From positions 1-21,304 of IMG/VR virus record IMGVR_UViG_2778261461_000001: DNA of 21,304 bases; one strand, written 5' to 3'. A program made the translations under genes and the position numbers. The notes beneath the pieces are model-generated. The model was not told where the DNA came from. It made no database searches and saw only the letters and a program-made list of their open reading frames with translations. Positions 1,175 through 20,445 of the stretch are shown piece after piece. Each line of letters starts with the position of its first letter. The first letter of the stretch is position 1. Source of the DNA: a virus. Its lineage: Duplodnaviria; Heunggongvirae; Uroviricota; Caudoviricetes.

Positions 1175-1933
1175 TTAGATGAGGAAATCATCCAGTGTTT
1201 TACCGGCTTCAAGTTGTTCGGCCAGTGCTTTAGGGGTACGCCCCTGGCCAGTCCAGGTTTTCGTTTCACCATTAACATCAGTGTATTTATATTTCGCAGG
1301 GCGCGGTTCGCGAACTTTTTTAGGTGCTCCGGACTTTGCAGAGAAAGAACTCAGTAACTCTTCAGGGTCAATTCCATCTTCAAGCATTAATTGACGCAGG
1401 GATTCAATCTTCTCCAGACGCGCTTTCAGCTCAGCTTCTTTTGAAGATTCTTCCTGACGTCGTTCTTCAATATTTGTATCAACCTGAACCTTCTGTATCT
1501 GCTGGATCGCTGCACTCTGGTCTTCCAGTTTCTTATTGACGGTCTGTGTGATTTCATTGCTGACATCCGTAATGGACGTCCTGATTTCAGCCAGGTCAGG
1601 CGCAAGCTGACCGTTATCAATCTGCGTCCACAGCTCCTGAGCCAGATGGGTTTTCCCTATCTCGCCTTTGAAAAAATCCAGATAGCCGGATGCATCATCA
1701 CTCGGCTGACCAACAGCCTCCACGAATGCCGATTTGCCAACGGTGTTCACACTGCGGATATAAAAGTAATAATCATGGCCCGGTTTGATATTGATACTGG
1801 CGGCTATCCAGTACAGCGCCGTACCAAGATAGCTGCTGCTCCCCAAGCCACACAGGAGGCTCATTATCTCCGGCCATACGCGCATCATGTTCCTGCCATT
1901 GTTTCGCGTGTGCCCAGGCATCACTACCCGCAA
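1175..1933 (-). CDS. Chimeric ORF: lambdoid host-specificity protein J internal fragment fused in frame to an H-NS/StpA-family C-terminal region (probable recombination product, possibly pseudogene)
   Basis: Residues about 35-105 ([41 protein letters not shown]...LDFFKG) match the lambda J C-terminal region; residues about 155-252 (IEERRQEES...[13 protein letters not shown]...[24 protein letters not shown]...LDDFLI) match the H-NS/StpA linker and DNA-binding domain including the TWTGQGRTP motif. The annotated start is TTG and there is no ATG near the H-NS-like part. Confidence 0.55.
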
Positions 1934-2003
1934 AAATAATGACTTCTGTTCCTTTGTGTTTTATGCCGCGTGACTGCTGTTTTACGTTCGGTGCCAGTTT
2001 CAT
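1773..2003 (-). CDS. Hypothetical small protein (76 aa); 3' end reads J-derived DNA out of frame, so likely truncated by the insert/J junction near 1831
   Basis: ATG at 2003 overlaps the upstream stop (ATGA) and is preceded by AGAGG; the C-terminal about 20 codons overlap J-homologous DNA in another frame. Confidence 0.4.
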
Positions 2004-2299
2004 TTTTTACCTCTGAATCCGTTAATCATGGTTTTCATTTTCTGGATATTTCCCCACGCTTTTTCCCTGCTGATGGGCTTACTGCGGGGTGCGGCATATA
2101 CCAGGGAAAAATCACGCCGGAACTGATAAACAGGCATCACGCAGTCATAGCTATACCCCTCACGGCGGTAAGTGATGCGCCGTTCTGCCACGCCTTTAAT
2201 CGTTACCGTGCCGCCGTATTTATCGCGGTAAATATCGCCGTTCATAAATTCAGTTCGAGCGGGGCCGCTGGCAATAAAGCCAGAATTTTTCATTTCCAT
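2000..2299 (-). CDS. Hypothetical small protein (99 aa), fourth gene of small-protein operon
   Basis: ATG with GAGGA 10 nt upstream; ATGA stop/start overlap with the downstream gene; no family recognised. Confidence 0.5.
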   Translation of the reverse strand: MEMKNSGFIASGPARTEFMNGDIYRDKYGGTVTIKGVAERRITYRREGYSYDCVMPVYQFRRDFSLVYAAPRSKPISREKAWGNIQKMKTMINGFRGKK

Positions 2300-2316
2300 A
2301 TTATTTATTCCTCGAC

Positions 2317-2538
2317 TTAACTCGACTTATTTGATAGCAGGGCACTATTTATTGCGTCATTGAGTTTTTCTGCTGATTCATCAATAAGTGACAACAGGCC
2401 ATAAGCAATATTTGCATCTTCATTGTCATTTATGCAATCAAGCCACATATTTAATATTGCTTTTGCTGAATTATTTAAAGTTAATGAACTTTCTGCACAT
2501 GCTAACAATTTAAAAAAGACTTCCCGTTCTGTATTCAT
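2317..2538 (-). CDS. Hypothetical acidic small protein (73 aa), third gene of operon
   Basis: ATG immediately follows the upstream stop at 2539-2541; GGGGGA upstream; predicted helical and acidic; no family recognised. Confidence 0.5.
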   Translation of the reverse strand: MNTEREVFFKLLACAESSLTLNNSAKAILNMWLDCINDNEDANIAYGLLSLIDESAEKLNDAINSALLSNKSS

Positions 2539-2730
2539 TTAATCCCCCACCAGCTTACTTTCTTCCTCAATCAAAAAACTAGCGACACTTCCCGAAAGAC
2601 GCGCCAGTAGGCTCGCCAGTGCGGATATATCAGCATCTGTAATTTTGTTCGGGTATACCTCAAGAAGGCGGCAAATAATTTCTGTCTGGTGCGCACGTTC
2701 AGCGGCTTCGTGTAATGTAATTTCCTGCAT
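2539..2730 (-). CDS. Hypothetical small protein (63 aa), second gene of operon
   Basis: TAATG stop/start overlap with the upstream gene; GAGGTG upstream. Confidence 0.5.
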   Translation of the reverse strand: MQEITLHEAAERAHQTEIICRLLEVYPNKITDADISALASLLARLSGSVASFLIEEESKLVGD

Positions 2731-2915
2731 TAATGCACCTCTTTTAATTCATACATTGCTGAAATAATGACTTGTGATAAGCCATATTCTGATGATTCGC
2801 TTCTCACCGCAGCAATAGCCGTCTGAACATTAACAGCCTTCACATTCTGAGCGATACCAATTGTGTGGCCTATTGGGTTAACAGCTCGGGCAAATACACG
2901 GAAGGTTTTAAGCAT
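2730..2915 (-). CDS. Hypothetical small protein (61 aa), first gene of operon
   Basis: ATG at 2915 with GGGAG 7 nt upstream; lies directly downstream of the divergent regulatory region. Confidence 0.5.
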   Translation of the reverse strand: MLKTFRVFARAVNPIGHTIGIAQNVKAVNVQTAIAAVRSESSEYGLSQVIISAMYELKEVH

Positions 2916-3194
2916 GACTCACTCCCTGGCGGATTTTTGCAGCGAATACAGCAACACAACCGGACGGGCAACGGCTACGCGCTTCGCGTTCCGTCCAGGC
3001 GGTTACGTGGATGATTTGAGATTCTCCGGCACTCAGTGCCAGAAAACGCCACACAAAGGCCGTTTGTGTGTGTACAAGGTGTGGTATATGATTTACAGCA
3101 ACCATAACGGCTCCTAGTTTACGTTGTTGGTTAGACGCCCCGTATGTGTTCCCAGCACTGCGGGGCGTTGCTCTTTGTATTTCAACAATCCTTT

Positions 3195-3275
3195 CGGTGT
3201 GTTTCATGTTATGAGCGCATGAAACACACGTCAAGGCTTTTTGTATTTCTTTTTTTGTGTATACTGAAACACACC
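3195..3275. promoter_or_regulatory. Putative operator/promoter region between the RHH regulator gene and the small-protein operon
   Basis: Inverted repeat GTGTGTTTCATG (3197-3208) - 9 bp - CATGAAACACAC (3218-3229), with a third half-site TGAAACACAC at 3265-3274 overlapping a TATACT -10-like hexamer (3260-3265) about 30 bp upstream of the RHH start. Confidence 0.4.
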
Positions 3276-3295
3276 GATGATTAGGAGTTTCAGAA

Positions 3296-3601
3296 ATGGC
3301 AACGGCTAACAAAAACGCAAAATCACAACTGACAACTGTCAGAGTCCCACTAGATGTTATGCAAGGGATGGAATCCGTTAAGCTGGACGGTGAAAGCAAT
3401 GCCGGATTTATCGTAACCGCCATGCGCGGAGAAATAGCCCGCCGCCAAGCAGAAGGCAGCGGAGAAAATCCCCTTGTGTCGTCACTGGATGCCCTGGCTA
3501 AGGTCGAACAAATCGGCATCAAAGCAGCCGAGGAGATCGGGCAACTCGTCACCGTCGCGCGTGAAGAACTCCAGCGACGCAAGGTCAAAGAGCATGAATA
3601 G
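3296..3601 (+). CDS. Putative ribbon-helix-helix (Arc/CopG-like) transcriptional regulator (101 aa)
   Basis: AGGAG 8 nt upstream of the ATG; N-terminus (TTVRVPLDVMQGMESV...AGFIVTAMRGEIARRQ) has a beta-strand then two helices typical of RHH; sits beside the palindromic operator. Confidence 0.55.
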   Translation: MATANKNAKSQLTTVRVPLDVMQGMESVKLDGESNAGFIVTAMRGEIARRQAEGSGENPLVSSLDALAKVEQIGIKAAEEIGQLVTVAREELQRRKVKEHE

Positions 3602-3658
3602 CCAATATCAGCGCCATAGTTTGAGGAACGCAGGCGCATTGCTTTACAGGACAGCACC

Positions 3659-3838
3659 ATGAGCGACACAGAATCAACCAAAACACCATCACCAACTCGT
3701 AAGAGACGACGCAAAAATATAGCGCATGAACATGAATCAGAAAGATTCGCACCTTGTTCGTTTGCTCTTGAGAAATTCCTTAAAGAGCACAGGAAAAAGC
3801 TCTCGTTGCAAACCTTGGAACGAACCAAATCTGACTGA
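3659..3838 (+). CDS. Hypothetical basic small protein (59 aa); below the ORF-track length cutoff
   Basis: ATG at 3659 with AGGA 7 nt upstream, 57 bp after the RHH gene and followed by a terminator; translation MSDTESTKTPSPTRKRRRKNIAHEHESERFAPCSFALEKFLKEHRKKLSLQTLERTKSD. Confidence 0.3.
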   Translation: MSDTESTKTPSPTRKRRRKNIAHEHESERFAPCSFALEKFLKEHRKKLSLQTLERTKSD

Positions 3839-3904
3839 TCACATTGCCCACCAGCCGCAAATGTGGCATTGTTGGTGATGCTTTTGTTTTCCCTTGTTCC
3901 CACT

Positions 3905-3936
3905 GGCGACCCTTTTGCGGTCGCCTTTGTTTTGTC
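3905..3936 (+). terminator. Rho-independent terminator for the plus-strand RHH/59-aa unit
   Basis: GGCGACC-cttttgc-GGTCGCC hairpin followed by TTTGTTTTGT. Confidence 0.5.
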
Positions 3937-4513
3937 ACTGAATGCGGTTACCAAAGTAAAACTCAGGCTGATATTCACGTATCAGCGTTTTTTCTTCTTC
4001 CTCCAGCTCACGCTTTTTGCGCTTACATGCCTGTAGCTCCCTCCCCTTCTCGCTGGCACTTATTTGATATTGCTCTTTACGGCGGGAAAAATCCTGTAAT
4101 GCACCCCACGGGATACCATAAGTCCCCGTTTTTCTGATACCTGGTATCACATTTCTGAATACCCAGTTACTGAAACGATGAGCAAATGTGCCAGGCGTCG
4201 TTGCTTTGCGGCTGCGGGCTATTAGTTTGTAGAAACCTGACTCAGAGATAATTCTCATATTCTGATTTCCTCCTGGGGTGTAAGTTAAATTTACTCCCTT
4301 TTCATCATCATCAAGCATCTGCAACGCCGTACGCGAATTGGTTAGTTCCAGCGCAGCACAAACATCTTTTGCAACAAACCACGGATCGCCGTTCAGATAC
4401 ACCACACGAACGTTCACACTATCAAAGCGCAGAACGACGAGATCACGAATATCGCAGAATTTTTTCACTGGACGAGCGTACCCCTTGCCCGTCACGGCAA
4501 TATTTTTATTCAT
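3935..4513 (-). CDS. Bro-N domain protein (phage antirepressor-like), 192 aa
   Basis: N-terminal region (FDSVNVRVVYLNGDPWFVAKDVCAALEL) is a recognisable Bro-N/antirepressor-type motif; C-terminus is charged and coiled-coil-like. Confidence 0.7.
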   Translation of the reverse strand: MNKNIAVTGKGYARPVKKFCDIRDLVVLRFDSVNVRVVYLNGDPWFVAKDVCAALELTNSRTALQMLDDDEKGVNLTYTPGGNQNMRIISESGFYKLIARSRKATTPGTFAHRFSNWVFRNVIPGIRKTGTYGIPWGALQDFSRRKEQYQISASEKGRELQACKRKKRELEEEEKTLIREYQPEFYFGNRIQ

Positions 4514-4531
4514 CGCGTTTTTACCTTATAG

Positions 4532-4556
4532 ACAAAAAACCCCTCGTGATGAGGGG
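4532..4556 (-). terminator. Hairpin with T-run after alpA (terminator or attenuator)
   Basis: CCCCTC-gtgat-GAGGGG followed on the minus strand by TTTTTTGT, 14 bp after the alpA stop and about 20 bp before the Bro-N start. Confidence 0.4.
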
Positions 4557-4569
4557 CATTATTTACTGG

Positions 4570-4827
4570 TTATTGCTGTTTTGTTTTTCCAGGTTTCCAT
4601 CCAGGATGCCACTCACCACGGATCCATGCCTGAACCTCTGAAAGTCGATACCCTGCAGCACGTTCACCGATCTTGATACGTCGCGGGAATTTACCTGCCT
4701 GCTCCATTTTCCAGCGTGTTGAGTTTGCCAGCGTGGTAAGTGCTATGCACTCTTTTTCACGAATGAACCGATCAATGTCCTTCATTGTGCGCAAATCGTT
4801 TTCATCAACAAGAGAATAAATTGCCAT
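4570..4827 (-). CDS. alpA: AlpA-family transcriptional regulator / excisionase-like protein (85 aa)
   Basis: Sequence (...GKFPRRIKIGERAAGYRLSEVQAWIRGEW...) matches the AlpA/Vis-type HTH family; start is 1 nt after the integrase stop, GAGGTGG upstream. Confidence 0.8.
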   Translation of the reverse strand: MAIYSLVDENDLRTMKDIDRFIREKECIALTTLANSTRWKMEQAGKFPRRIKIGERAAGYRLSEVQAWIRGEWHPGWKPGKTKQQ

Positions 4828-4828
4828 A

Positions 4829-6070
4829 TCACACCACCTCTTTATTAAGCTCGATAACGTTGTTGTTAAATCCTGCTATCGTATTAAGGTAATTAACCCA
4901 CATATTAAGCACCTCAAGTTTTTTCTTTATATGCCTGCTTTTATTGTAAACACCAGCAACCCCTTTCACTTTATGACCTAAAAGAAGTTCGACAATATAA
5001 GGATCCGCCCCCATATCATTAAGCGTAGTGGAAAATGTGCGCCTGAAATCATGTATGCACCACAAGCCATTAGTATCATGACCAAGACGCCTGCATATTC
5101 TGTTTGCAGCCCCTGTTATTGTCGCCCTTTGCAAAGCACAACCGACAACATAACCGCGATTTTTTGTTTCTGCGTAAAGATTAACGATCCATTGTTTTAT
5201 TCCGTCAGGAACAGGCCTTACTATAGCCTCCTTGTTTTTGCTGTGCTCTTTTGGGACTGTCCATACCCAGTTTTTTAAATCCCATTCGTCCCAGGTGGAT
5301 AGCCTCGCCTCCTGCTGTCGGCAACCAAACACCAGGCAGATAACCATTATTCTTCGGTTATATATTGATGACAGAGTTAGCAAATTATTACCGTAAGCAT
5401 AAGACCATACATCAGCGGTTTCATTGATATTAAGAACGCGATCCCTTATACCGGATGAGCGCCCGACATAACTTACGTTAATATCTCCAAAGGGATCGCA
5501 CGCGATGTATTGCCTGACGCGACAAAAACGCAACGCCTGTTTGATATCAAGAAAAATTGCACCAGACATAACAGGCGCATTTTTTTTGATCCTGTCAAAG
5601 ACGGTAAGCCATGTGTGTAATTTGCACTGTTCTATAGCCATATCACCGATATAGGGGAAGATATGCTTTTCAAATCGTTTTATTAAATATTCATGCTCTT
5701 TTCTGGCTGTTGTGGCGTGATTGTCGTACCAGTAAAACAGCGCATCCCTTACGGTCACTGGTTGCATAGTTTTTTCGGCAGCAAGTTTTATTTGCCTGCG
5801 GGGGTCCAGATTTTCAGCCAGCCATTCACGGCACTGATCACGCATGCGCCTGGCCGTTGCAAGAGACATGTCAGGATAGCGACCAAGTGTAAGCCATACC
5901 GGAGGGGATTCCCTGCCACCAAGACGATAGTAAAAAACAAAGCTGATCCCCCCAACCATGCTTACACGCACAGACAACCCGCGCCCATCCGCTATTGTTT
6001 TTTGTTTGTCCTGCCGTTTTCCGACAAGACTCTTTAACAGTTTGTCACTGAGTTTGTTTTCAATAGCCAT
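4829..6070 (-). CDS. int: Tyrosine recombinase (P4/CP4-57-type integrase with N-terminal arm-binding domain), 413 aa
   Basis: N-terminal DUF4102-like arm-binding region (GRGLSVRV...FYYRLGGRE...LTLGRYPDMSLATAR) and C-terminal catalytic motifs (HDFRRT, LLGHK, GVYNKSRH); GAGGG upstream of the ATG. Confidence 0.85.
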   Translation of the reverse strand: MAIENKLSDKLLKSLVGKRQDKQKTIADGRGLSVRVSMVGGISFVFYYRLGGRESPPVWLTLGRYPDMSLATARRMRDQCREWLAENLDPRRQIKLAAEKTMQPVTVRDALFYWYDNHATTARKEHEYLIKRFEKHIFPYIGDMAIEQCKLHTWLTVFDRIKKNAPVMSGAIFLDIKQALRFCRVRQYIACDPFGDINVSYVGRSSGIRDRVLNINETADVWSYAYGNNLLTLSSIYNRRIMVICLVFGCRQQEARLSTWDEWDLKNWVWTVPKEHSKNKEAIVRPVPDGIKQWIVNLYAETKNRGYVVGCALQRATITGAANRICRRLGHDTNGLWCIHDFRRTFSTTLNDMGADPYIVELLLGHKVKGVAGVYNKSRHIKKKLEVLNMWVNYLNTIAGFNNNVIELNKEVV

Positions 6071-6086
6071 TAAAAGCCCTCAAGAG

Positions 6087-6142
6087 ATTTGCAATACACA
6101 CCCATCCCGATCGCCAATTTGCAATACACATTGCAATACACA
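6087..6142. repeat. Three direct repeats of TTGCAATACACA upstream of the integrase start (candidate arm-type or regulator binding sites)
   Basis: Copies at 6089-6100, 6119-6130 and 6131-6142, 20-70 bp upstream of int. Confidence 0.5.
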
Positions 6143-6270
6143 AAACCGCGAAAAACTGGAAGGGTGATGAACGGTCATCAAAAGCATGGAAAACGACATT
6201 CCAGACGCAGCAAGGGTTTCAGTGGAGTTGGCGAACGATGCGGGCAACTACGGTGAGATGATAGACATAA

Positions 6271-7303
<1,033 letters not shown>

Positions 7304-7954
7304 TCATCCTCTCCGGATAAGGCACGGGCGTAATCTGCCAGTGTTTTCTTGTTGGTTGCTGCACCATCCTCTTCCTGCAGGCTCGCCAGCAGTGCACTGA
7401 GATCCAGCTGCCAGCGGGAAATACTGATGCGCAGCGCCGCCAGCGCATATCAGTTCATCCAGCGCGGCTGCTTTGTTCATGGCTTTGATAATATCCCGTT
7501 TCAGGAAATCAACATGTCGGTTTTCCAGTTCCGGAAAACGCCGCTGCACCGACAGGGGGAGCCCGTCGAGAATACTGGCAATTTCACCTGCGATCCGCGA
7601 CAACACGAAAGTACAGAATGCGGTTTCCACCACTTCAGCGGAGTCTCTGGCATTCTTCAGTTCCTGTGCGTCGGCCTGCGCACGCGTAAGTCGATGGCGT
7701 TCGTACTCAATAGTCCCTGGCTGGAGATCTGCCTCGCTGGCCTGGCGCAGTTCTTCAACCTCCCGGCGCAGCTTTTCGTTCTCAATTTCAGCATCCCTTT
7801 CGGCATACCATTTTATAACGGCGGCAGAGTCATAAAGCACCTCATTACCCTTGCCACCGCCTCGCAGAACGGGCATTCCCTGTTCCTGCCAGTTCTGAAT
7901 GGTACGGATACTCGCACCGAAAATGTCAGCCAGCTGCTTTTTGTTGACTTCCAT
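7304..7954 (-). pseudogene. nu1: Terminase small subunit Nu1 fused to the 3' end of terminase large subunit gene A (internal deletion of nearly all of A)
   Basis: Matches lambda Nu1 up to ...AAALDELI (junction about 7447-7451); downstream DNA corresponds to the last about 50 codons of A read out of frame. Confidence 0.8.
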
Positions 7955-8131
7955 TGTTCATTCCACGGCCAAAAACAGAGAAAGGAAACGACAAAGGCCC
8001 AAAAGTTCGTTTTCAGCACCTGTCGTTTCCTTTCTTTTCAGGGGGTATTTTAAATAAAAACATTAAGTTACGACGAAGAAGAACGGAAACGCCTTAAACC
8101 GGAAAATTTTCATAAATAGCGAAAACCCGCG

Positions 8132-8143
8132 AGGTCGCCGCCC
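8132..8143. other. cosN cohesive-end site, with cosB and cosQ flanks at about 8040-8210
   Basis: AGGTCGCCGCCC is the reverse complement of the lambda cohesive end GGGCGGCGACCT; flanks match the remembered lambda left-end and right-end sequences. Confidence 0.8.
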
Positions 8144-8342
8144 CGTAACCTGTCGGATCGCCGGAAAGGACCCGCAAAATGATAATAATTATCATCTGCA
8201 TGTCACAACGTGCATCTACGCCATCAAACCACGTCAAATAATCAATTATGACGCAGGTATCGTATTAATTGATCTGCATCAACTTAACGTAAAAACAACT
8301 TCAGACAATACAAATCAGCGACACTGAATACGGGGCAACCTC

Positions 8343-8537
8343 ATGTCAACGAAGAACAAAACCCGCAGAACAACAACCCGCAACATCCGCTTTCCTAACC
8401 AAATGATTGAACAAATTAACATCGCTCTTGAGCAAAAAGGGTCTGGGAATTTCTCAGCCTGGGTCATTGAAGCCTGCCGTCGGAGACTAACGTCAGAAAA
8501 GAGAGCATATACATCAATCCAAAGTGATGATGAATAA
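8343..8537 (+). CDS. Small conserved ORF (64 aa) corresponding to a lambda right-end ORF; possible RHH-like fold
   Basis: DNA matches the remembered lambda right-end region; translation MSTKNKTRRTTTRNIRFPNQMIEQINIALEQKGSGNFSAWVIEACRRRL... Confidence 0.45.
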   Translation: MSTKNKTRRTTTRNIRFPNQMIEQINIALEQKGSGNFSAWVIEACRRRLTSEKRAYTSIQSDDE

Positions 8538-8896
8538 ACATCCCGGTTTCTTCCACCATCGCACCGGAAAAGCGACTATGAGGGTAACCCTGCGTCTGTC
8601 AGCACAGTAAAACCCGGTGTGCATCGTTTTTGATTATTCCCGCACACTCACGCAGAAGGAATTCCCCGTCGGGCTACGGTCATGGTTAATGCGGGAATAC
8701 GGCGACGATACAGCGCAGCTAAAAGGGTAATGGACAGATAGAGCGGTTTATTTCATTCCACAGGATTCTGAGTGCCCCCCTCCTCCAATAGGCTGAGCAT
8801 CCACCTATATAGTTTTATTTTTCATCAATCCATTTAACTATCGTTTAATTGTTGTCACATAGGATTCTGCCGTTTTTAACAATGCAGGATAATAAG

Positions 8897-9190
8897 ATGA
8901 AAAAAATGTTGTTTTCTGCCGCTCTGGCAATGCTTATTACAGGATGTGCTCAACAGACGTTTACTGTTGGAAACAAACCGACAGCAGTAACACCAAAGGA
9001 AACCATCACCCATCATTTCTTCGTTTCGGGAATTGGACAGGAGAAAACTGTTGATGCAGCCAAAATTTGTGGCGGCGCAGAAAATGTTGTTAAAACAGAA
9101 ACCCAGCAAACATTCGTAAATGGATTGCTCGGTTTTATTACTTTAGGCATTTATACTCCGCTGGAAGCGCGGGTGTATTGCTCACAATAA
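8897..9190 (+). CDS. bor: Bor lipoprotein (serum-resistance, lysogenic conversion), 97 aa
   Basis: MKKMLFSAALAMLITGCAQQTF... with lipobox LITGC; matches lambda Bor; AGGA upstream of ATG at 8897 (the ORF-track start at 8849 is rejected). Confidence 0.85.
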   Translation: MKKMLFSAALAMLITGCAQQTFTVGNKPTAVTPKETITHHFFVSGIGQEKTVDAAKICGGAENVVKTETQQTFVNGLLGFITLGIYTPLEARVYCSQ

Positions 9191-9221
9191 TTGCATGAGT
9201 TGCCCATCGATATGGGCAGCT

Positions 9222-9683
9222 CTATCTGCACTGCTCATTAATATACTTCTGGGTTCCTTCCAGTTGTTTTTGCATCGTGATCAGCCTCTCTCTGAGAGTG
9301 AAATAATCCCGTTCAGCGGTGTCTGCCAGTCGGGGGGAGGCTGCATTATCCACGCCGGAGGCGGTGGTGGCTTCACGCACTGACTGACAGACTGCTTTGA
9401 TGTGCAACCGACGACGACCAGCGGCAACATCATCACGCAGAGCATCATTTTCAGCTTTCGCATCAGCTAACTCCTTCGTGTATTTTGCATCGAGCGCAGC
9501 AACATCACGCTGACGCATCTGCATGTCAGTAATTGCCGCGTTCGCCAGCTTCAGTTCTCTGGCATTTTTGTCGCGCTGGGCTTTGTAGGTAATGGCGTTA
9601 TCACGGTAATGATTAACAGCCCATGACAGGCAGACGATGATGCAGATAACCAGAGCGGAGATAATCGCGGTTACTCTGTTCAT
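9222..9683 (-). CDS. Rz: Rz i-spanin (lambda-type), 153 aa from ATG at 9683
   Basis: Matches lambda Rz (…[58 protein letters not shown]...); ATGA overlap with the endolysin stop. Confidence 0.85.
9281..9463 (-). CDS. Rz1: Rz1 o-spanin lipoprotein embedded in Rz in the +1 frame
   Basis: [52 protein letters not shown]; lipobox plus proline-rich region typical of lambda Rz1. Confidence 0.8.
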
Positions 9684-10177
9684 TGCTGACCCCACAAACA
9701 GATTTCACGCTCAATCTCACGACGAGTCATGAGACCTTTCCATTGCTTACCGCCAGCATATGTCCAGCGACGTAGCTGATCACATGCGCCTTTGATATCG
9801 CCCTGGTTTATTTTGCGAAGAAGCGTCGATGTTCTGAAATTGCCAGCACCCACGTTGTAAACGAATGAGTAAAGAGCGCCGCGCGTTGTTTCCGGTATAT
9901 CGACTTTGATGTACGGGTTAATTTGTCTGGCGACCGTGGCAAGGTCTTTATTCAGGAGGGCTTTGCATTCTGCTTTGGTATACGTTTTACCGAGCATGAT
10001 GTCTTTTCCTGTATGCCCGTGACATACAGTCCATACACCAACAATATCTTTGTATGGTATGTAGCTGACACCTTCCAGACCATCGTTACCACTTGGGCCA
10101 GTGATTAACACTGATGCTATAGCAATTGCTCCGCCACCAATAGCAGCAGCAACGGCTTTTCGTAATGATGGAGGCAT
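9680..10177 (-). CDS. R: SAR endolysin (phage 21 R-type, T4-lysozyme family with N-terminal signal-anchor-release domain), 165 aa
   Basis: N-terminal Gly/Ala-rich SAR segment ([20 protein letters not shown]) followed by a lysozyme-like domain; overlaps the holin stop. Confidence 0.85.
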
Positions 10178-10392
10178 TATTCACCTCTCGCAGCCTTGCG
10201 CTTATCTTCTTTAATCTTGAAATAAAGGTTTGTCAGGTACGTCAGCAGGCCAAATACCAGGCTACCCAGCACACCTATTGCTGCCCACTGTGAGGGCGTG
10301 ACTTTATCGAGCAGCTGTAAAAACCAGTAACCGGCACTACCTGCTGAGGTGCCATAGGCGACACCCGTTGTTAACTTATCCATGGATTTCAT
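10177..10392 (-). CDS. S: Class II pinholin (S21-type), about 71 aa from MKSMDKL
   Basis: Two transmembrane segments and a dual-start motif (MKSMDKL); GAGGTG upstream of ATG at 10392 (the ORF-track start at 10437 is probably too long). Confidence 0.8.
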
Positions 10393-10980
10393 AACCCCAC
10401 CTCGCAGACAAAGCGGGTGTAAATTGAGGGAATACAACGTATCGCAAAAAAGCAGAAACGTAACAGACTCGGAGTCAGTGAATAACTCAGGTATTGAGTT
10501 ATCAGCTAATATCGAGACTCAAAAAATGGAAAAACCAGCTCGACGGCGGGTTTAAGCTGTGTGACGAAGTAACCACTCTTAACAGCATAACCAATTTTTT
10601 ACGTACGTAAACCACTGAATGATATTTATGAGAATGCTACCGAGTGTTCAAAACTCCACCACAAATACATAAGAAAACCTCAACAAATAACCAATAAATA
10701 ATTTCAGATGTTATTTTTAGTTGATTTAAATTAAACTGCCGAATTATAGAACCCCCATAAATAACAGCCATTAATATAAATTAGCTAATAGGTTTATTTT
10801 TGTTCAAATAAGAGCCATAAATAGGTTTCGATAGAAAAAGTTCAGATAAAAATAGAGATCTACTTCACAAATTAAATGAGAAACTAAAACTTACATCTTG
10901 AAATAATCACATTGATTAGATGAATATTTATCGCGCAGTGACATCATTTTTTAATAATAGTTCAAAAAAAAGGGCTCACG

Positions 10981-12063
10981 ATGAAAAAATTAACAGTGGC
11001 AATTTCTGCTGTAGCTGCATCAGTACTGATGGCGATGTCTGCTCAGGCAGCTGAAATTTATAATAAAGACAGTAACAAGCTGGATCTGTACGGGAAAGTT
11101 AATGCTAAGCACTACTTCTCCTCTAATGATGCAGATGATGGTGATACTACTTATGCCCGTCTTGGCTTCAAAGGTGAAACCCAAATCAACGATCAACTGA
11201 CTGGTTTCGGTCAGTGGGAATATGAATTCAAAGGCAACCGCGCTGAATCTCAAGGTTCCTCCAAAGATAAAACCCGTCTTGCCTTCGCTGGCCTGAAATT
11301 CGGTGACTACGGCTCCATCGATTATGGCCGTAACTACGGTGTAGCATACGATATTGGTGCATGGACCGACGTTCTGCCAGAATTCGGTGGCGATACCTGG
11401 ACCCAAACAGATGTATTCATGACTGGTCGCACCACAGGTGTTGCAACTTATCGTAACAACGACTTCTTTGGTCTGGTTGATGGCCTGAACTTTGCAGCTC
11501 AGTATCAGGGCAAAAATGACCGAAATGAAGTAACTGAAGCTAATGGCGATGGTTTCGGTTTCTCAACTACTTATGAGTATGAAGGATTCGGCGTGGGTGC
11601 AACCTATGCTAAATCTGATCGCACTAATAATCAGGTTATCTACGGTAACAACGGTCTGAATGCTTCTGGTCAAAATGCTGAAGTATGGGCAGCTGGTCTG
11701 AAATATGATGCGAACAACATCTATCTGGCCACCACCTATTCTGAAACCCAGAACATGACTGTTTTTGGTAATAACCATATTGCCAACAAAGCACAAAACT
11801 TCGAAGCTGTTGCACAATATCAGTTCGACTTCGGCCTGCGTCCATCCGTTGCTTACCTGCATTCTAAAGGAAAAGACTTGGGTGTTTGGGGTGATCAGGA
11901 CCTGGTTGAGTATGTTGATGTAGGTGCAACCTATTACTTCAACAAAAATATGTCCACTTTTGTTGACTACAAAATCAACCTGATTGATAAGAGCGATTTC
12001 ACGAAAGCATCTGGCGTTGCTACCGATGATATCGTTGCTGTAGGTATGGTTTACCAGTTCTAA
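10981..12063 (+). CDS. nmpC: Prophage-encoded general porin of the OmpC/OmpF/NmpC (Lc) family, 360 aa with signal peptide
   Basis: Signal peptide ending AQA, then [23 protein letters not shown]... and C-terminal ...VAVGMVYQF typical of enterobacterial porins; position between Q and the lysis cassette on the opposite strand matches DLP12 nmpC and PA-2 lc. Confidence 0.85.
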
Positions 12064-12190
12064 TTTGATTACTAAAAGGTATGTTGTGGGAGGCTTTGCC
12101 TCCCCAACATATAAGTGGCTCCCTCAAGCCACTTCCTTTAGAAGCACAACCTTGCTTCTAACTATACAAACCTTCTGTTATATATTACCC

Positions 12191-12215
12191 TTTATTTTTG
12201 GGGGCGTTTCAACGC
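12191..12215 (+). terminator. Rho-independent terminator downstream of the porin gene
   Basis: GGGGCG-tttcaa-CGCCCC followed by ATTTTT. Confidence 0.6.
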
Positions 12216-12251
12216 CCCATTTTTAATAACTTTTAGTAAATAATTGGCGTA

Positions 12252-12635
12252 TTAATTAGAGTTATTAACAACGATATCCATCTCTAACCGGATATCTAAT
12301 GCCATTAACATCCCTTCAATTATGCCCTCAGCCTTTTGTAACCTTTTCCCGATATAACCATCAGAGCAGCAATGCTTACCTGCCAGTGACATGAATGTCA
12401 TACCGACTACATAATAATCTACTAATAAATCGTGCAAATCGCTGTTGTTCTTTTTCAGACGGGCCATGCACCCGCAAATGATCATCGCGTCATCGTCACA
12501 ACATTGCGGGCGAGATTTTACTTTTGAAAGAATTAATCCCTTAAAACCGGCGGCAATGGACGACCAGGTCACATCTTCATGATTATTAGCCGCCCACGCT
12601 CCCCAACGCTCAAGAACCATCTGAATATCACGCAT
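12252..12635 (-). CDS. Q: Late-gene antiterminator Q (phage 82/21/DLP12 QuuD-type), 127 aa from ATG at 12635
   Basis: Cys-rich zinc-binding region ([19 protein letters not shown]); GGAG upstream of ATG at 12635 (the ORF-track TTG start at 12650 is rejected); sits between rusA and the lysis genes. Confidence 0.75.
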
Positions 12636-12720
12636 CAACTTACTCCACAAAAATCAGACCAGAACGCCAATTACAAGCAAAAATCAACAAAACAGTATTA
12701 GTTGATTGTTATCTCTGACT

Positions 12721-12861
12721 TCATACTCCTGCTCCTGTCAGGGTTTTGGCGTAATTCTTCAGTATTCGGTAATCGGTCAAAACAGAACCGGGGAAACGAT
12801 ATAAGCGCAGATGCCCCCAGCGGTGGCGAAGAAGTTCTGCCATATAAAACTCAAACATCAT
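12721..12861 (-). CDS. Small ORF (46 aa) between rusA and Q, YlcG-like by position and length; below the ORF-track cutoff
   Basis: ATGATG start overlapping the rusA stop (ATGA); translation [46 protein letters not shown]. Confidence 0.35.
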
Positions 12862-13220
12862 TCATTCCCCATTTCGGTGATGGTCAGTTCCAGCCTCCCA
12901 CCTTTGGTAACAGGCATCTTCACAACGCGGTAATCAACGACCTGAGCATCATCCAGCCAGAAACCTGCTTTAGTGAGTGCGTCAAAAGCGGCTTTTTGCA
13001 GATTATCCAGGTCACGGCGACGGCGATCCGGCATGTGGCACTCAATGCGGATTTTCACAGGCATAGCCAGGCCGATATCCAGCATTGCGTTTTTAATGAT
13101 TCGGGCGACGTTATCGCGGTATGCCTGCCCCTCTGCGCTGACGTGCGTGCGCCCGCGATTATGGCGGTAATAGCGATTATTGCTCGGAGGCCAGGGTAAT
13201 GTGATGCTGTAGGTATTCAC
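12858..13220 (-). CDS. rusA: RusA Holliday-junction resolvase (120 aa, GTG start)
   Basis: [102 protein letters not shown]... matches RusA. Confidence 0.85.
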
Positions 13221-13526
13221 GCCTTAATAACCCCCTCTTTCAGCCAGATAACCTGTGTTCTCGCCATACCTTCCAGCGCGCATTCTTTTGCATATGCAGC
13301 ATCGACTTGCTTGGCATGCCCTTTACCGGCAATCTTCTGTATGCGCTAAACCTAGATAGAATCCACTCTGTGCACATTGAAGCCCGCTCTATGCTTCCTT
13401 TCAGGTATTGAAGGGATTGAGATGGGCTAAGCATTATTGGCCTCCTGCATCAGGAGAAAGACAATCATGGCGGCGCGGAGAGGTCTGGTATCAAATATTG
13501 GGCTTGAAGAACTGAAAGAACACCAA

Positions 13527-13548
13527 GCCGCCTGATGGCGGTTTTTTC
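13527..13548 (+). terminator. Hairpin with T-run upstream of xis (terminator-like)
   Basis: GCCGCC-tgat-GGCGGT followed by TTTTTTCTT. Confidence 0.4.
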
Positions 13549-13574
13549 TTGCGTGTAATTGCGGAGACTTTGCG

Positions 13575-13793
13575 ATGTACTTGACACTTCAGGAGTGGAA
13601 CGCTCGCCAGCGACGCCCAAGAAGCCTTGAAACAGTTCGTCGATGGGTGCGCGAATGCAGGATATTCCCTCCTCCGGTTAAGGATGGAAGAGAATATCTG
13701 TTCCACGAATCAGCGGTAAAGGTTGACTTAAATCGACCAGTAACAGGTAGCCTTTTGAAGAGGATCAGAAATGGGAAGAAGGCGAAGTCATGA
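13575..13793 (+). CDS. xis: Lambda excisionase Xis (72 aa)
   Basis: [72 protein letters not shown] matches lambda Xis. Confidence 0.9.
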
Positions 13794-14841
13794 GCGCCGG
13801 GATTTACCCCCTAACCTTTATATAAGAAACAATGGATATTACTGCTACAGGGACCCAAGGACGGGTAAAGAGTTTGGATTAGGCCGAGACAGGCGAATCG
13901 CAATCACTGAAGCTATACAGGCCAACATTGAGTTATTTTCAGGACACAAACACAAGCCTCTGACAGCGAGAATCAACAGTGATAATTCTGTTACGTTACA
14001 TTCATGGCTTGATCGCTACGAAAAAATCCTGGCCAGCAGAGGAATCAAGCAGAAGACACTCATAAATTACATGAGCAAAATTAAAGCAATAAGGAGGGGT
14101 CTGCCTGATGCTCCACTTGAAGACATCACCACAAAAGAAATTGCGGCAATGCTCAATGGATACATAGACGAGGGCAAGGCGGCGTCAGCCAAGTTAATCA
14201 GATCAACACTGAGCGATGCATTCCGAGAGGCAATAGCTGAAGGCCATATAACAACAAACCCGGTCGCCGCCACTCGCGCAGCAAAATCAGAGGTAAGGAG
14301 ATCAAGGCTTACGGCTGACGAATACCTGAAAATTTATCAAGCAGCAGAATCATCACCATGTTGGCTCAGACTTGCAATGGAACTGGCTGTTGTTACCGGG
14401 CAGCGAGTTGGTGATTTATGCGAAATGAAGTGGTCTGATATCGTAGATGGATATCTTTATGTCGAGCAAAGCAAAACAGGCGTAAAAATTGCCATCCCTA
14501 CAACATTGCGTGTTGATGCTCTCGGGATATCAATGAAGGAAACACTTGATAAATGCAAAGAGATTCTTGGCGGAGAAACCATAATTGCATCTACTCGTCG
14601 TGAACCGCTTTCATCCGGCACAGTATCAAGGTATTTTATGCGCGCACGAAAAGCATCAGGTCTTTCCTTCGAAGGGGATCCGCCTACCTTTCACGAGTTG
14701 CGCAGTTTGTCTGCAAGACTCTATGAGAAGCAGATAAGCGATAAGTTTGCTCAACATCTTCTCGGGCATAAGTCGGACACCATGGCATCACAGTATCGTG
14801 ATGACAGAGGCAGGGAGTGGGACAAAATTGAAATCAAATAA
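13771..14841 (+). CDS. int: Lambda-type integrase Int (356 aa)
   Basis: [68 protein letters not shown]... matches lambda Int; overlaps the xis 3' end as in lambda. Confidence 0.9.
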   Translation: MGRRRSHERRDLPPNLYIRNNGYYCYRDPRTGKEFGLGRDRRIAITEAIQANIELFSGHKHKPLTARINSDNSVTLHSWLDRYEKILASRGIKQKTLINYMSKIKAIRRGLPDAPLEDITTKEIAAMLNGYIDEGKAASAKLIRSTLSDAFREAIAEGHITTNPVAATRAAKSEVRRSRLTADEYLKIYQAAESSPCWLRLAMELAVVTGQRVGDLCEMKWSDIVDGYLYVEQSKTGVKIAIPTTLRVDALGISMKETLDKCKEILGGETIIASTRREPLSSGTVSRYFMRARKASGLSFEGDPPTFHELRSLSARLYEKQISDKFAQHLLGHKSDTMASQYRDDRGREWDKIEIK

Positions 14842-14915
14842 TGATTTTATTTTGACTGATAGTGACCTGTTCGTTGCAACAAATTGATAAGCAATGCTTT
14901 TTTATAAGGCCTACT

Positions 14916-14930
14916 TAGTATAAAAAAGCA
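14916..14930. other. Prophage/chromosome junction attL: att core TTAGTATAAAAAAGC flanked by the phage P' arm (left) and the chromosomal B arm (right)
   Basis: Core is the reverse complement of GCTTTTTTATACTAA; right flank AGGCTTCA matches the E. coli attB arm; left flank resembles the lambda P' arm with about 3 differences (from memory). Confidence 0.8.
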
Positions 14931-14975
14931 GGCTTCAACGGATTCATTTTTCTATTTCATAGCCCGGAGCAACCT

Positions 14976-16259
14976 GTGAACACATTTTCAGTTTCCCGTC
15001 TGGCGCTGGCATTGGCTTTTGGCGTGACGCTGACCGCCTGTAGCTCAACCCCGCCCGATCAACGTCCTTCTGATCAAACCGCGCCTGGTACCTCTTCTCG
15101 CCCGATTCTGTCGGCAAAAGAAGCGCAGAATTTCGATGCTCAACACTATTTTGCATCCCTGACACCAGGTGCTGCAGCGTGGAATCCTTCCCCGATTACC
15201 CTGCCTGCGCAACCTGACTTTGTTGTCGGCCCGGCGGGCACTCAAGGTGTAACGCATACCACGATTCAGGCGGCGGTAGATGCGGCAATTATCAAGCGTA
15301 CCAACAAGCGCCAGTATATTGCCGTGATGCCTGGTGAGTATCAGGGAACGGTATATGTCCCTGCCGCTCCGGGTGGAATTACTCTGTACGGTACAGGTGA
15401 AAAACCGATTGATGTGAAGATTGGGCTTTCCCTTGATGGTGGCATGAGCCCTGCCGACTGGCGTCACGACGTCAACCCGCGCGGCAAATATATGCCAGGT
15501 AAACCAGCGTGGTATATGTACGATAGCTGCCAGAGCAAACGCAGCGACAGTATCGGTGTTCTCTGCTCTGCGGTCTTCTGGTCACAAAACAATGGCCTGC
15601 AACTGCAAAATCTGACCATCGAAAACACGCTGGGCGATAGCGTAGATGCAGGTAACCATCCGGCGGTGGCACTGCGTACTGATGGTGACCAGGTACAGAT
15701 TAACAACGTTAACATTCTCGGTCGTCAGAACACCTTCTTTGTCACCAACAGCGGTGTGCAGAACCGTCTGGAAACGAATCGTCAGCCGCGTACGCTGGTG
15801 ACCAACAGCTACATTGAAGGGGATGTGGATATCGTTTCTGGTCGCGGCGCAGTGGTGTTCGATAACACCGAATTCCGCGTGGTGAACTCACGTACTCAGC
15901 AAGAAGCGTATGTGTTTGCACCGGCTACGCTGTCCAACATTTACTACGGTTTCCTCGCCGTAAACAGCCGTTTCAATGCTTTCGGTGATGGTGTGGCGCA
16001 ACTGGGCCGCTCGCTGGATGTTGATGCCAATACCACCGGTCAGGTGGTGATCCGTGATAGCGCCATCAACGAAGGTTTTAACACGGCTAAACCGTGGGCC
16101 GATGCGGTGATCTCTAATCGTCCGTTTGCGGGTAATACCGGCAGCGTAGATGATAACGACGAAATACAGCGCAATCTGAATGACACTAACTACAACCGCA
16201 TGTGGGAATACAATAACCGCGGCGTGGGTAGTAAAGTGGTTGCAGAGGCGAAGAAGTAA
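14976..16259 (+). CDS. ybhC: YbhC outer-membrane lipoprotein (pectinesterase-like acyl-CoA thioesterase), 427 aa, GTG start
   Basis: Signal peptide with lipobox LTAC; sequence and position next to attB-lambda match E. coli ybhC. Confidence 0.85.
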   Translation: MNTFSVSRLALALAFGVTLTACSSTPPDQRPSDQTAPGTSSRPILSAKEAQNFDAQHYFASLTPGAAAWNPSPITLPAQPDFVVGPAGTQGVTHTTIQAAVDAAIIKRTNKRQYIAVMPGEYQGTVYVPAAPGGITLYGTGEKPIDVKIGLSLDGGMSPADWRHDVNPRGKYMPGKPAWYMYDSCQSKRSDSIGVLCSAVFWSQNNGLQLQNLTIENTLGDSVDAGNHPAVALRTDGDQVQINNVNILGRQNTFFVTNSGVQNRLETNRQPRTLVTNSYIEGDVDIVSGRGAVVFDNTEFRVVNSRTQQEAYVFAPATLSNIYYGFLAVNSRFNAFGDGVAQLGRSLDVDANTTGQVVIRDSAINEGFNTAKPWADAVISNRPFAGNTGSVDDNDEIQRNLNDTNYNRMWEYNNRGVGSKVVAEAKK

Positions 16260-16264
16260 GAGCA

Positions 16265-16480
<216 letters not shown>

Positions 16481-16492
16481 ACATGGCGCTTT

Positions 16493-18754: not shown

Positions 18755-18936
18755 CAAATGCTCCAGATATCTGCGCACCGTGAAGTGCGCAGAAAGATAA
18801 TAAATGGATATACTCTAAATAATTCGAGTTGCAGGAAGGCGACAAGCGAGTGAATCCCCAGGAGCTTACATAAGTAAGTGACTGGGGTGAGCGAACGCAG
18901 ACGCAGCACATGCAACTTGAAGTATGACGAGAATAT

Positions 18937-20370
18937 TTACAGCATGTTCCAGCCGATCAGCATATTCCACCACCACACGCCGAGGGTGATATGCACCAGG
19001 AAGGTTAATATCGTCAGTACCGCACCGACCAACCACCAGGATTTAATATCGTTATAACCCACGCCAAAGATGACCGGACCTGCCGCGCCGCCATAGTGAG
19101 TAACCATGCCGCCATAGGAGTTGGAGAACAACAGTGCCAGCGCGGTTAACATTAACGGTGCGCCGGAGACGTTCGCCAGCATGGCAAATACCGGTAACAT
19201 AGCAACGATATAGGCACTACCGGAAGCGAAGAAATAACGCACGATAATGCTGAGGAAAATAATAACGAAGAAAGCAACGTTACCGTGACCATCAAATGCC
19301 AGGTTATTTTTAAAGACTTCAGCTAACCATTCGAAGAATTTAACTTTCGATAATAAGGAGCTTAAGCCGATAATACCGCCGTACCAGATTAAGGTATTCC
19401 AGCCGCCTTTATTTTTAACCACGTCTTCCCAGGTAACGATACCCAGCAGCAGCATGGTTGCCATAACAACGATTGCCACGGTGGATTCATCAACCCCCAG
19501 AGACTTACTGAAAATCCAGCCCAGCAGCGCCAGCACAAAGACACCGAGCAGCATTTTTTCGCGGATTTTCATCGGTCCTAGTTCGGCAAGGCCCGCTTTA
19601 GCGATGGTTTTGTTATCCACCTTCTTAATTTCTGGTGGATACATGGTGTAAATCACCAGCGGGGTGACCAGCAGCATAATGATGCCCGGCAATCCGGCTG
19701 CCAGCGCCCATCCACCCCAGCTAATTTGCAGGTGCAGAATGTCGTTGATCATTTTCAGCGCCAGAATGTTCCCCGCCATTGCGGTAAAGAACATATAGCT
19801 GGTGGTTTTGGTGACCATGTAAATGGACATCATCAGGTAATGTCCGACACGACGCGGACTTTTTTCCGGTTCGGACCCCAAAGCCACCGCCACGCTGTTG
19901 ATGATCGGTAACACAATGCCGCCCGCACGCGCGGTGTTAGACGGTGTTGCCGGAGCCAGTACCAGATCGAGGAATACCGTAACGTAACCCAGACCCAGCG
20001 TGGTGTTACCGATTTTACCAATCAGCAGATAGGCAATACGTTTACCTAAACCGGTGGTCACAAATGCGGCGCTTAAGGTAAACGCCGAGAACACCAGCCA
20101 GGTGGTACCTGAAGAGTAACCGCTTAATACGGCGGTGGTTTTAAACGCACCGTCGGATAAGTTACCGACCACCACCATTGAGGCAGCAACGGCAATTAAC
20201 AGTACGACAGGTTCCGGGAAAGGCTTGATAACCAGCCCCACAATGGCCGCCAGGTAAATACCAAAAAGCACCCACGCCAGTTCGCTTAATCCTGCCGGAG
20301 CTGGCATAAAACCAATAATACATGGGATCGCTAATATCAGAATTAGCTTCCATAACGATTTCTTATTCAT
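18937..20370 (-). CDS. ybhI: YbhI DASS-family di/tricarboxylate transporter (477 aa)
   Basis: Multi-pass hydrophobic protein; sequence and position match E. coli ybhI. Confidence 0.85.
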   Translation of the reverse strand: MNKKSLWKLILILAIPCIIGFMPAPAGLSELAWVLFGIYLAAIVGLVIKPFPEPVVLLIAVAASMVVVGNLSDGAFKTTAVLSGYSSGTTWLVFSAFTLSAAFVTTGLGKRIAYLLIGKIGNTTLGLGYVTVFLDLVLAPATPSNTARAGGIVLPIINSVAVALGSEPEKSPRRVGHYLMMSIYMVTKTTSYMFFTAMAGNILALKMINDILHLQISWGGWALAAGLPGIIMLLVTPLVIYTMYPPEIKKVDNKTIAKAGLAELGPMKIREKMLLGVFVLALLGWIFSKSLGVDESTVAIVVMATMLLLGIVTWEDVVKNKGGWNTLIWYGGIIGLSSLLSKVKFFEWLAEVFKNNLAFDGHGNVAFFVIIFLSIIVRYFFASGSAYIVAMLPVFAMLANVSGAPLMLTALALLFSNSYGGMVTHYGGAAGPVIFGVGYNDIKSWWLVGAVLTILTFLVHITLGVWWWNMLIGWNML

Positions 20371-20445
20371 TTAAAATCCTGTTCTTTCTGTATGACTCAT
20401 ACAGAAGTCCTTTATTGATTGTCCTTATCCTGACAACGAATTTTT

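Follow-up and report, generated by a model that had tools for sequence, protein, structure and literature searches.

A probable remnant of a helper-embedded satellite in the portal gene of a decayed lambda-like prophage

Helper-embedded satellites and the locus under study

The closest described relatives of the locus reported here are the helper-embedded PICIs (HE-PICIs), defined in 2023 by Tommasini, Mageeney & Williams (PMC10111431), who described their four ordered zones (Integration, Bro, Replication, and Late), their att motif, and an induction experiment. Supplementary File 1 of that work lists elements named B_Phage_portal_2_241, which have in common the identity block 'aaggcgat' near position 241 of the Pfam Phage_portal_2 profile and include one example of 10,899 bp (PMC10111431). 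A doubled motif, tgTGTATTGCantgTGTATTGCa, flanks the attP core and is specific to HE-PICI attP sites; Gram-negative PICIs of the EcCICFT073 type do not carry the doubled TGTATTGC attP motif (PMC10111431). In the prototype of the class, Eco567.11capE (site E:Phage_cap_E:80), induction leads to excision of the whole composite, replication of this composite, and then precise excision of the satellite, and no particles were recovered (PMC10111431).

The window that we analysed, a stretch of 21,304 nucleotides from a Caudoviricetes record (IMGVR_UViG_2778261461_000001), contains a 4.4 kb module that is very probably the integrase-side ~40% of a ~11 kb phage satellite targeting the portal gene of lambda-like prophages. 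With the same high confidence, we consider this copy to be an immobile remnant of an HE-PICI of site group B:Phage_portal_2:241; none of our observations speaks against this. Both the class and the exact insertion site were already known from the 2023 study (PMC10111431), and the window copy adds no new kind of system. It provides a clear example of the published phenomenon, a satellite inside a late gene of its own helper prophage, and it illustrates how such a composite ends up once deletions have pared down both partners. The arrangement that the earlier note on this DNA described as a parasite of a parasite is thus borne out, as an instance of the published class (PMC10111431).

The catalogued members of this site group (among them Eco14781.11.B_Phage_portal_2_241, Eco2613.11 in CP011416, and Eco4623.11 in CP006834; PMC10111431) use the same att block and portal codon, and the group shares with our locus the doubled TGTATTGC motif, a ybhC-side helper, and 99.5-100% identity over window positions 1828-6400. 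In contrast with their 10,899-bp complete form, the window copy has lost the far att site, the SSB gene, the whole late zone, and all but the first codons of the primase, and its helper is gutted. Eco567.11capE has a similar integrase-AlpA-Bro-replication-late layout, sits co-oriented within a late gene of a lambdoid helper, and encodes a capsid homologue of its own, as does the complete B:241 element, but its target is the major capsid gene E instead of portal gene B, its integrase belongs to another subclade, and it is the only element for which excision after replication of the composite has been shown (PMC10111431). EcCICFT073 and other Gram-negative PICIs, including those inserted in fis and hpt, also have int followed by a co-oriented alpA, a Bro zone, a primase-based replication zone, and a length of ~11 kb, but they insert in chromosomal genes and act on their helpers only in trans. 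The satellite phage P4 resembles the locus in its related integrase clade, AlpA-like gene, Bro-network gene, and D5-like primase, whereas here the helper is lambdoid instead of P2-like, and insertion is into a phage gene instead of a tRNA gene.

Genes retained in the module

Between the portal and J homologies, the window encodes, in this order, an integrase, AlpA, a Bro-N protein, a YlcI/YnfO-like protein, an Icd-like protein, three small ORFs, a DUF4222 protein, and a primase stub of 59 codons, all on the minus strand, as is the portal N-terminal half, except for the YlcI/YnfO-like gene. In terms of the published zones, Integration and Bro are complete, Replication is represented by DUF4222 and the 59 primase codons, and Late is absent. 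The tyrosine integrase (4829..6070, 413 aa) is full length, with the Pfam domains Arm-DNA-bind_3, Phage_int_M, and Phage_integrase. It shares the protein accession WP_000963723.1 with the integrase of a complete element in Escherichia coli strain Z0117EC0116 (locus L002), and its gene shows no nucleotide difference from the one in that element. Because of this identity, and because positions 1828-6400 are 99.8-99.9% identical to four elements catalogued in PMC10111431 (their coordinates in CP011416, CP006834, CP028192, and CP015912 contain our matches H26, H50, H38, and H44, respectively), the integrase appears to fall in the HE-PICI clade. Directly downstream and co-oriented is the gene of an AlpA-family excisionase/regulator (4570..4827; Pfam Phage_AlpA, E = 5e-14; phrog_2790), separated by a terminator-like GC hairpin with a T-run (4539..4557, minus strand; a consensus match only) from the Bro-N gene that makes up the Bro zone (3935..4513; Pfam Bro-N, E = 5e-20; phrog_2593 anti-repressor, E = 4e-85). 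These Pfam matches confirm the P4-type tyrosine integrase, co-oriented AlpA, and Bro-N protein proposed from the sequence in the earlier note. A second P4-type int-alpA pair among lambdoid morphogenesis genes is best annotated as an HE-PICI or as what is left of one.

Divergent from the leftward operon, a small protein of the YlcI/YnfO family (3296..3601, plus strand; NCBIfam YlcI_YnfO_N, E = 2e-17; phrog_6522) is a candidate regulator. Upstream of its gene, a repeat search found operator-like repeats (3194..3277) consisting of three copies of TGAAACACAC, one of them inverted; the set, a putative operator, includes a perfect 13-bp inverted repeat and overlaps a leftward promoter-like site detected in a promoter scan (3234..3206). 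In the gene list of the earlier note, this gene and its repeats correspond to the RHH regulator with its operator. The leftward genes that follow encode a homologue of the Icd-like host cell-division inhibitors (2908..3105; NCBIfam phage_ICD_like, E = 1e-17), three small proteins (2317..2915, with genes at 2730-2915, 2539-2730, and 2317-2538) of the functionally unassigned families phrog_3672, phrog_1478, and phrog_2196, annotated as hypothetical in strains C1 and Z0117EC0116, and a DUF4222 protein (2000..2299; Pfam DUF4222, E = 2e-23) at the start of the replication zone. The five small genes previously left unassigned are all present, and two of them can now be named, one as Icd-like and one as DUF4222.

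The last gene is a stub of a satellite primase/helicase (1827..2003, codons 1-59 of 584), identical to the N-terminus of the primase in L002, which matches D5_N, DUF5906, and Pox_D5; in strain C1 the stub bears the annotation of a DNA primase family protein that lacks the C-terminus. The module had been described as devoid of primase or replication genes, which needs correction for these surviving codons. Two other ORFs were rejected as genes: that at 2908-3978 (356 aa) lies antisense to the ylcI-like gene, extends over intergenic DNA, and has not been annotated in C1 or Z0117EC0116, and that at 1175-1933 (252 aa) is a chance read-through over two junctions, hns|J and J|primase.

A PADLOC scan of the nine module proteins gave no match and thus no support for the anti-phage cargo that had seemed plausible beforehand. 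A search of the module for the P4-type immunity RNAs C4 and isrK with Rfam models found none, either at gathering thresholds or at E<=1, which gives no support to RNA-based immunity in this element.

The portal junction and the complete relatives

The right boundary of the module cuts the helper portal gene, the cognate of lambda B, whose N-terminal half (6271..7100, minus strand, ~277 codons) is collinear with the intact portal gene of a related prophage with an empty site (L003) and is annotated in strain C1 as a portal protein without a C-terminus. Residues 32-281 of the truncated ORF match positions 2-242 of the 354 in the Pfam Phage_portal_2 profile, and the profile is broken at 238-242, with the N-terminal half ending at 242 and the C-terminal half starting at 238. 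The abrupt end of lambda B homology reported at 6271 is confirmed by this profile limit and by the att crossover core ATCGCCTT at 6271..6278, which marks the int-side recombinant att site. To the right of the core the sequence matches the uninterrupted portal gene (attB of L003, at 6176), and to the left it is satellite-specific. In L002 these 8 bp bound the complete element on either side (13545 and 24444), and the intact attB of L003 contains them too; read on the opposite strand, ATCGCCTT gives the identity block 'aaggcgat' of B_Phage_portal_2_241 (PMC10111431, Supplementary File 1).

Close to the core, a repeat search located three ATTTGCAATACACA repeats (6087..6142, plus strand), of which the tandem pair at 6117-6142 constitutes the doubled TGTATTGC motif, a putative arm-type binding site of the integrase, and 6087-6100 is an extra single copy. 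The doubled motif also occurs near both ends of the L002 element, where its second copy (13625-13649) corresponds to DNA deleted from the window. We measured core-to-motif-centre distances of ~89 and 143 bp, compared with the published 81 and 132 bp (PMC10111431), a mismatch that probably reflects a different reference point.

The far side of the element is another matter. The window has only the int-side recombinant att site, whereas the complete relative in L002 has both; the repeat of the junction sequence that the earlier note suggested looking for toward the far end did not appear, as no far-end att sequence was found in the window with up to 3 mismatches allowed, and far-side copies of the arm-type motif are absent from it. 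The window copy must therefore be counted as a remnant of an HE-PICI member and not as a functional one, and with a single att site and no replication gene it is predicted to be unable to excise, replicate, or be packaged. The same observations make it exceedingly unlikely that the module is a small integrative island, complete with int, alpA, and cargo and kept mobile by a cryptic second att site. Such an island would fit the intact int and alpA, identical to those of complete elements, but not a left boundary at codon 59 inside the primase ORF, nor the fact that this left junction occurs in 1 of 5,426 genomes as against 64 for the genuine att junction on the int side.

These counts come from a survey of 5,426 complete E. 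coli genomes. Positions 1828-6400 of the window are matched contiguously in 52 other genomes at 99.5-100% identity. The earlier proposal to look elsewhere in E. coli for the module with its att site and full gene set was rewarded in strain Z0117EC0116, where the same core bounds a 10,899-bp element on each side. The element lies between the two halves of the portal gene it interrupts, in an otherwise complete lambdoid prophage; strain CFSAN029787 likewise has a complete composite. The Z0117EC0116 element comprises all four zones and, beyond the part shared with the window, contains the full primase, an SSB gene, homologues of lambda E, D, and Nu1, and a second AlpA-like gene; the window retains ~4.44 kb (41%) of it. 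Capsid-remodelling genes, previously noted as lacking, are indeed absent from the window but belong to the complete element in the form of these E, D, and Nu1 homologues, deleted here. The integrase is not an inactive fragment without att repeats, since it is full length and the repeats exist in other genomes.

The window and L002 differ at 2 positions in the 4.4 kb of satellite and at 18 in 1.2 kb of flanking helper DNA, the pattern expected of a mobile-element boundary. Lambdoid prophages are highly mosaic, and the prophage in the window has suffered several other deletions, so that a recombination patchwork, or an ordinary, moron-like part of a lambdoid genome, might be imagined in place of a separate mobile element. 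This we find extremely improbable given the sharp fall of divergence inside the element, its defined ends with the same 8-bp core on both flanks, the empty site in related prophages, its own integrase, AlpA, primase, and late genes, its occurrence between both portal halves in L002, and its listing as a discrete genomic island in a published catalogue (PMC10111431). Among the three options initially considered, the truncated satellite and the island targeting a phage structural gene both stand, as two aspects of the same element, and the patchwork falls on the defined ends, the core, and the empty site.

The P4-type architecture of the integrase, the co-oriented alpA, and the D5-type primase would also suit an off-target integration into a prophage, whether by a P4-like satellite, a capsid-forming PICI (cf-PICI), or a PICI of the standard chromosomal kind, all the more as such integration is known for this integrase clade (PMC10111431). 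We give this explanation very little credence, since the site is canonical and recurrent, being found in 64 genomes and in the published list (PMC10111431), and genes for Sid, Psu, and Delta are lacking from the complete element: no Pfam families corresponding to them were detected in the window or in the L002 element. cf-PICIs possess their own complete head module (portal, protease, major capsid, and connectors) together with TerS. In contrast, the L002 element encodes only major capsid, decoration, and Nu1 homologues, without portal, protease, or connector genes of its own, and it interrupts the portal gene of its helper.

Proposed life cycle and decay of the composite

For the HE-PICI of which the window copy is the probable remnant, we propose that the P4-type integrase would recombine the 8-bp core ATCGCCTT of attP with its copy near codon 276 of a lambdoid portal gene, which would stay split until excision of the satellite. 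The complete element (10.9 kb) would contribute its primase, SSB, own E (major capsid), D (decoration), and Nu1 (small terminase) homologues, and a second AlpA-like gene, and the helper would supply the portal, protease, large terminase, and tail. Since they are homologous to 11capE, the sole HE-PICI tested (PMC10111431), we infer that members of the B:241 group follow the same order of events.

The composite would have sat at the lambda attachment site adjoining ybhC before its decay; three of the helpers in CP011416, CP006834, CP028192, and CP015912 were mapped at 'PBP|ybhC', the chromosomal site of the window (PMC10111431). On the left, the satellite ends at a sharp boundary with an internal fragment of the tail-tip gene J (1471..1833, minus strand, codons ~764-885), 362 of whose 363 nucleotides (99.7%) are identical to gpJ of ETEC H10407. 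A three-way alignment places the junction at 1828..1833, on the 6-bp microhomology GATAGC common to primase codon ~59 and J codon ~764, with the satellite match running from 1828 and the J match covering exactly 1471-1833. The resumption of J homology was thus rightly described as abrupt, and its position, given before as about 1831, is mapped to 1833 with the H10407-type J allele, the L003 allele (85% identity) being too distant for this purpose. The junction was found in 1 of the 5,426 genomes, that of strain C1, where it is 100% identical. At its left end (1-1470), the window joins IS10 and plasmid-type DNA to J in an unusual way that is not seen in C1, and this could raise the suspicion that the primase-J junction is also an assembly artefact; as C1 is an independently assembled complete genome, the probability of this is close to negligible.

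A deletion of ~20 kb, a size that assumes an ancestor organised like L002, would have joined primase codon 59 to J codon ~764 via this microhomology. It probably removed ~6.4 kb of satellite DNA with the far att site, and, on the helper side, everything from the portal C-terminal half through J codon ~764, with all the head and tail genes. Further deletions would have taken most of the terminase genes and the helper early region, leaving int, alpA, and the Bro-N, YlcI-like, and Icd-like genes intact.

The authors of PMC10111431 speculated only that abandoned HE-PICIs may regain activity through a new helper. That the stranded remnant responds to incoming lambdoid phages and interferes with them, and that the host keeps it as a domesticated anti-phage module, we regard as unlikely, at the level of an outside chance; interference might proceed through Int-mediated recombination between the resident half-site and an incoming portal attB, or through Bro or Icd activity. 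The genes to which a non-inert reading of the remnant can refer are the int-alpA pair, the anti-repressor-like Bro-N gene, the Icd-like gene, and the YlcI-like regulator with its operator-like repeats.

The satellite in the portal gene and its complete counterpart

The foreign module recognized in the earlier note is confirmed by its boundaries: homology to the portal gene, the lambda B cognate, stops at the 8-bp att core ATCGCCTT (6271-6278), the match of the truncated portal to Pfam Phage_portal_2 ends at profile position 242 of 354, and homology to the tail-tip gene J resumes at 1833. When 5,426 complete E. coli genomes were searched with window positions 1700-6400, 52 genomes besides strain C1 matched 1828-6400 contiguously at 99.5-100% identity, and the int-side portal junction is therefore common to them; a 180-bp probe spanning this junction was fully covered in 64 of the 5,426. 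A search of this kind was proposed in that note. A complete copy with its own att sites and full gene set is present in strain Z0117EC0116 (locus L002), where the portal gene of an otherwise complete lambdoid prophage is split into C-terminal (12773-13555) and N-terminal (24440-25273) halves. The insert contains the genes found in the module (int, alpA, Bro-N, YlcI-like, Icd-like, three small proteins, and DUF4222) and, in addition, a 584-aa D5_N/DUF5906 primase, a small protein, SSB, a second AlpA-like protein, one additional small protein, and late genes homologous to lambda E (Phage_cap_E), D (HDPD), and Nu1. It has ATCGCCTT at both ends, with a spacing of 10,899 bp, and ATTTGCAATACACA-type repeats near both. 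The portal gene of strain TUM1887 (L003) is uninterrupted and reads through a single copy of the core, namely attB. The earlier proposal of a phage structural gene as the target is supported.

The satellite part of the window differs from L002 by 2 nucleotides in 4.4 kb, whereas the adjacent helper DNA (6271-7449) shows 18 differences in 1.2 kb. Divergence is thus 0.05% in 1828-6270 but reaches 1.5% in the portal, W, and Nu1 sequences alongside, with the first helper-side difference 140 bp past the core, the pattern expected of one mobile element in differing helper alleles. At the far end of the complete element, between the last ORF and the att site (L002 13960-14350), there are several direct repeats, aatcaatgggttag and gccagccagcgcaat...gcgttatc among them, that could represent a cos/packaging site or an origin; the window has lost this stretch by deletion.

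Membership in the helper-embedded PICIs

Helper-embedded PICIs (HE-PICIs), described by Tommasini, Mageeney and Williams (NAR Genom Bioinform 2023, PMC10111431), are satellites residing, co-oriented, in one of 14 sites within lambda late gene cognates. Their integrases form one clade, their genes are laid out in four zones, Integration (int, alpA), Bro, Replication, and Late, and their attP sites bear the doubled motif tgTGTATTGCantgTGTATTGCa (PMC10111431), the reverse complement of which lies at window positions 6117-6142. Supplementary File 1 of that work includes a group, B_Phage_portal_2_241, with the identity block 'aaggcgat', the reverse complement of ATCGCCTT, and an example, Eco14781.11, of 10,899 bp (PMC10111431). 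Four of the matching genomes (CP011416, CP006834, CP028192, and CP015912) are catalogued in the same file (PMC10111431) and, since the listed coordinates enclose our matches, membership in this site group is demonstrated by direct overlap with catalogued elements and not by resemblance. For three of the four, the location given for the helper prophage is 'PBP|ybhC', as in the window. The catalogue already covers the class and its exact site group as well as near-identical complete copies.

The HE-PICI prototype, Eco567.11capE, located in the major capsid gene E, was followed after mitomycin C by qPCR and deep sequencing: the helper-satellite composite first excises and replicates, and the satellite excises later and precisely, restoring the interrupted late gene; particles were not recovered (PMC10111431). 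By homology, the complete portal-site element would block portal expression until excised by Int and AlpA. Its own primase and SSB would then replicate it, and its packaging would combine its own E, D, and Nu1 homologues with the portal, protease, large terminase, and tail of the helper.

Genes of the module

All genes of the module (1831-6270) lie on the minus strand, with the single exception of a divergent YlcI/YnfO-family gene (3296-3601, plus strand). They are int (4829-6070; Arm-DNA-bind_3, Phage_int_M, and Phage_integrase domains), alpA (4570-4827), a Bro-N gene (3935-4513; phrog_2593, annotated as anti-repressor), an Icd-like gene (2908-3105), three small genes without known function (2317-2915), a DUF4222 gene (2000-2299), and the first 59 codons of the primase (1827-2003). 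The gene list of the earlier note therefore holds, its "no primase" statement being corrected by this stub. A terminator-like hairpin, a feature of the sequence only, is found 3' of alpA (4557..4539, minus strand). The Icd-like operon and the YlcI-like gene diverge from a 190-bp region with three copies of TGAAACACAC, including a perfect 13-bp inverted repeat, which overlap a leftward promoter-like site. Judged from sequence, these repeats fit the regulator with its operator suggested previously, as a putative operator. We found no P4-type immunity RNA in the module and no known defence proteins among its products.

Truncation of the satellite and decay of its helper

Homology to the complete satellite begins at 1828 and H10407-type J homology covers exactly 1471-1833 (362 of 363 nt), the two overlapping at GATAGC (1828-1833), a 6-bp microhomology at which primase codon 59 is fused to codon ~764 of J, a gene of 1,165 codons in the H10407 allele. 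This junction is present in just one of the 5,426 complete genomes, that of strain C1. Assuming an L002-like ancestor, the deletion would have cost the satellite ~6.4 kb, with the far att site and the entire late zone, and the helper ~14 kb, from the C-terminal half of the portal gene through two-thirds of J. The suggestion of a truncated satellite is supported. Homology ends inside the primase, and both the far att site and the late zone are absent; a search across the window for a far-side repeat of the att junction revealed no such sequence or motif. Because it has one att site, no primase beyond the stub, and a dead helper, the remnant is unable to excise, replicate, or be packaged. Its int and alpA are nucleotide-identical to those of L002 and its genes carry only two non-synonymous changes relative to that copy, an agreement so close that it points to recent loss, with no sign of selection for gene retention. 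The window copy is a decayed, non-mobile remnant of a satellite targeting a phage structural gene.

The chromosome of strain C1 (locus L001) matches window positions 1471-21304 at 99.98% identity, and this region is a lambdoid prophage, much reduced by deletions, that occupies the lambda attachment site. Carrying over the C1 annotation (window coordinate = L001 coordinate - 6530) places ybhC at 14976-16259 (plus strand), with the prophage int and xis immediately to its left and, leftward on the minus strand, the Q, lysis, bor/iss, Nu1, W, and portal genes. The helper has also lost 1.79 kb of Nu1/A that L002 and L003 retain (junction 7448/7449), and between 13306 and 13488 it lacks an early region of ~11 kb that is present in L003 and comprises the nin region, O, P, cI, cro, red, and gam.

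The deletion at 7448-7449 joins the Nu1 start to the terminase A end, generating a 216-aa ORF (7304-7954) labelled 'terminase small subunit' in C1, and at 13306-13488 fragments of ninX and of a DUF1364 gene now adjoin xis and int. A further indel of the helper remnant is seen at 8554-8843, where 289 bp replace the ~1.3 kb with ybcW and ybcV of L002 and L003.

At the left end of the window, positions 1-632 correspond to an IS10 element end, whose terminal inverted repeat stops at 632 (...ggggattcatcag) and which contains an RNA-OUT match (518-587, 97 bits). Positions 633-1470 match, at 100% identity, part of certain large plasmids of E. coli (pO111_1, for example) that includes a plasmid H-NS-family gene; this hns gene is broken at 1470 and runs directly into the J fragment, no IS end marking the join, where strain C1 has further J sequence. 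The join may reflect an IS10-associated rearrangement, plasmid integration, or an assembly chimera. Finally, the ybhC-ybhJ intergenic region contains a match to the Rfam family naRNA4 (REP-derived; 16328-16398), barely above the gathering score, beside a 103-bp inverted duplicate (16275-16376 / 16367-16469).
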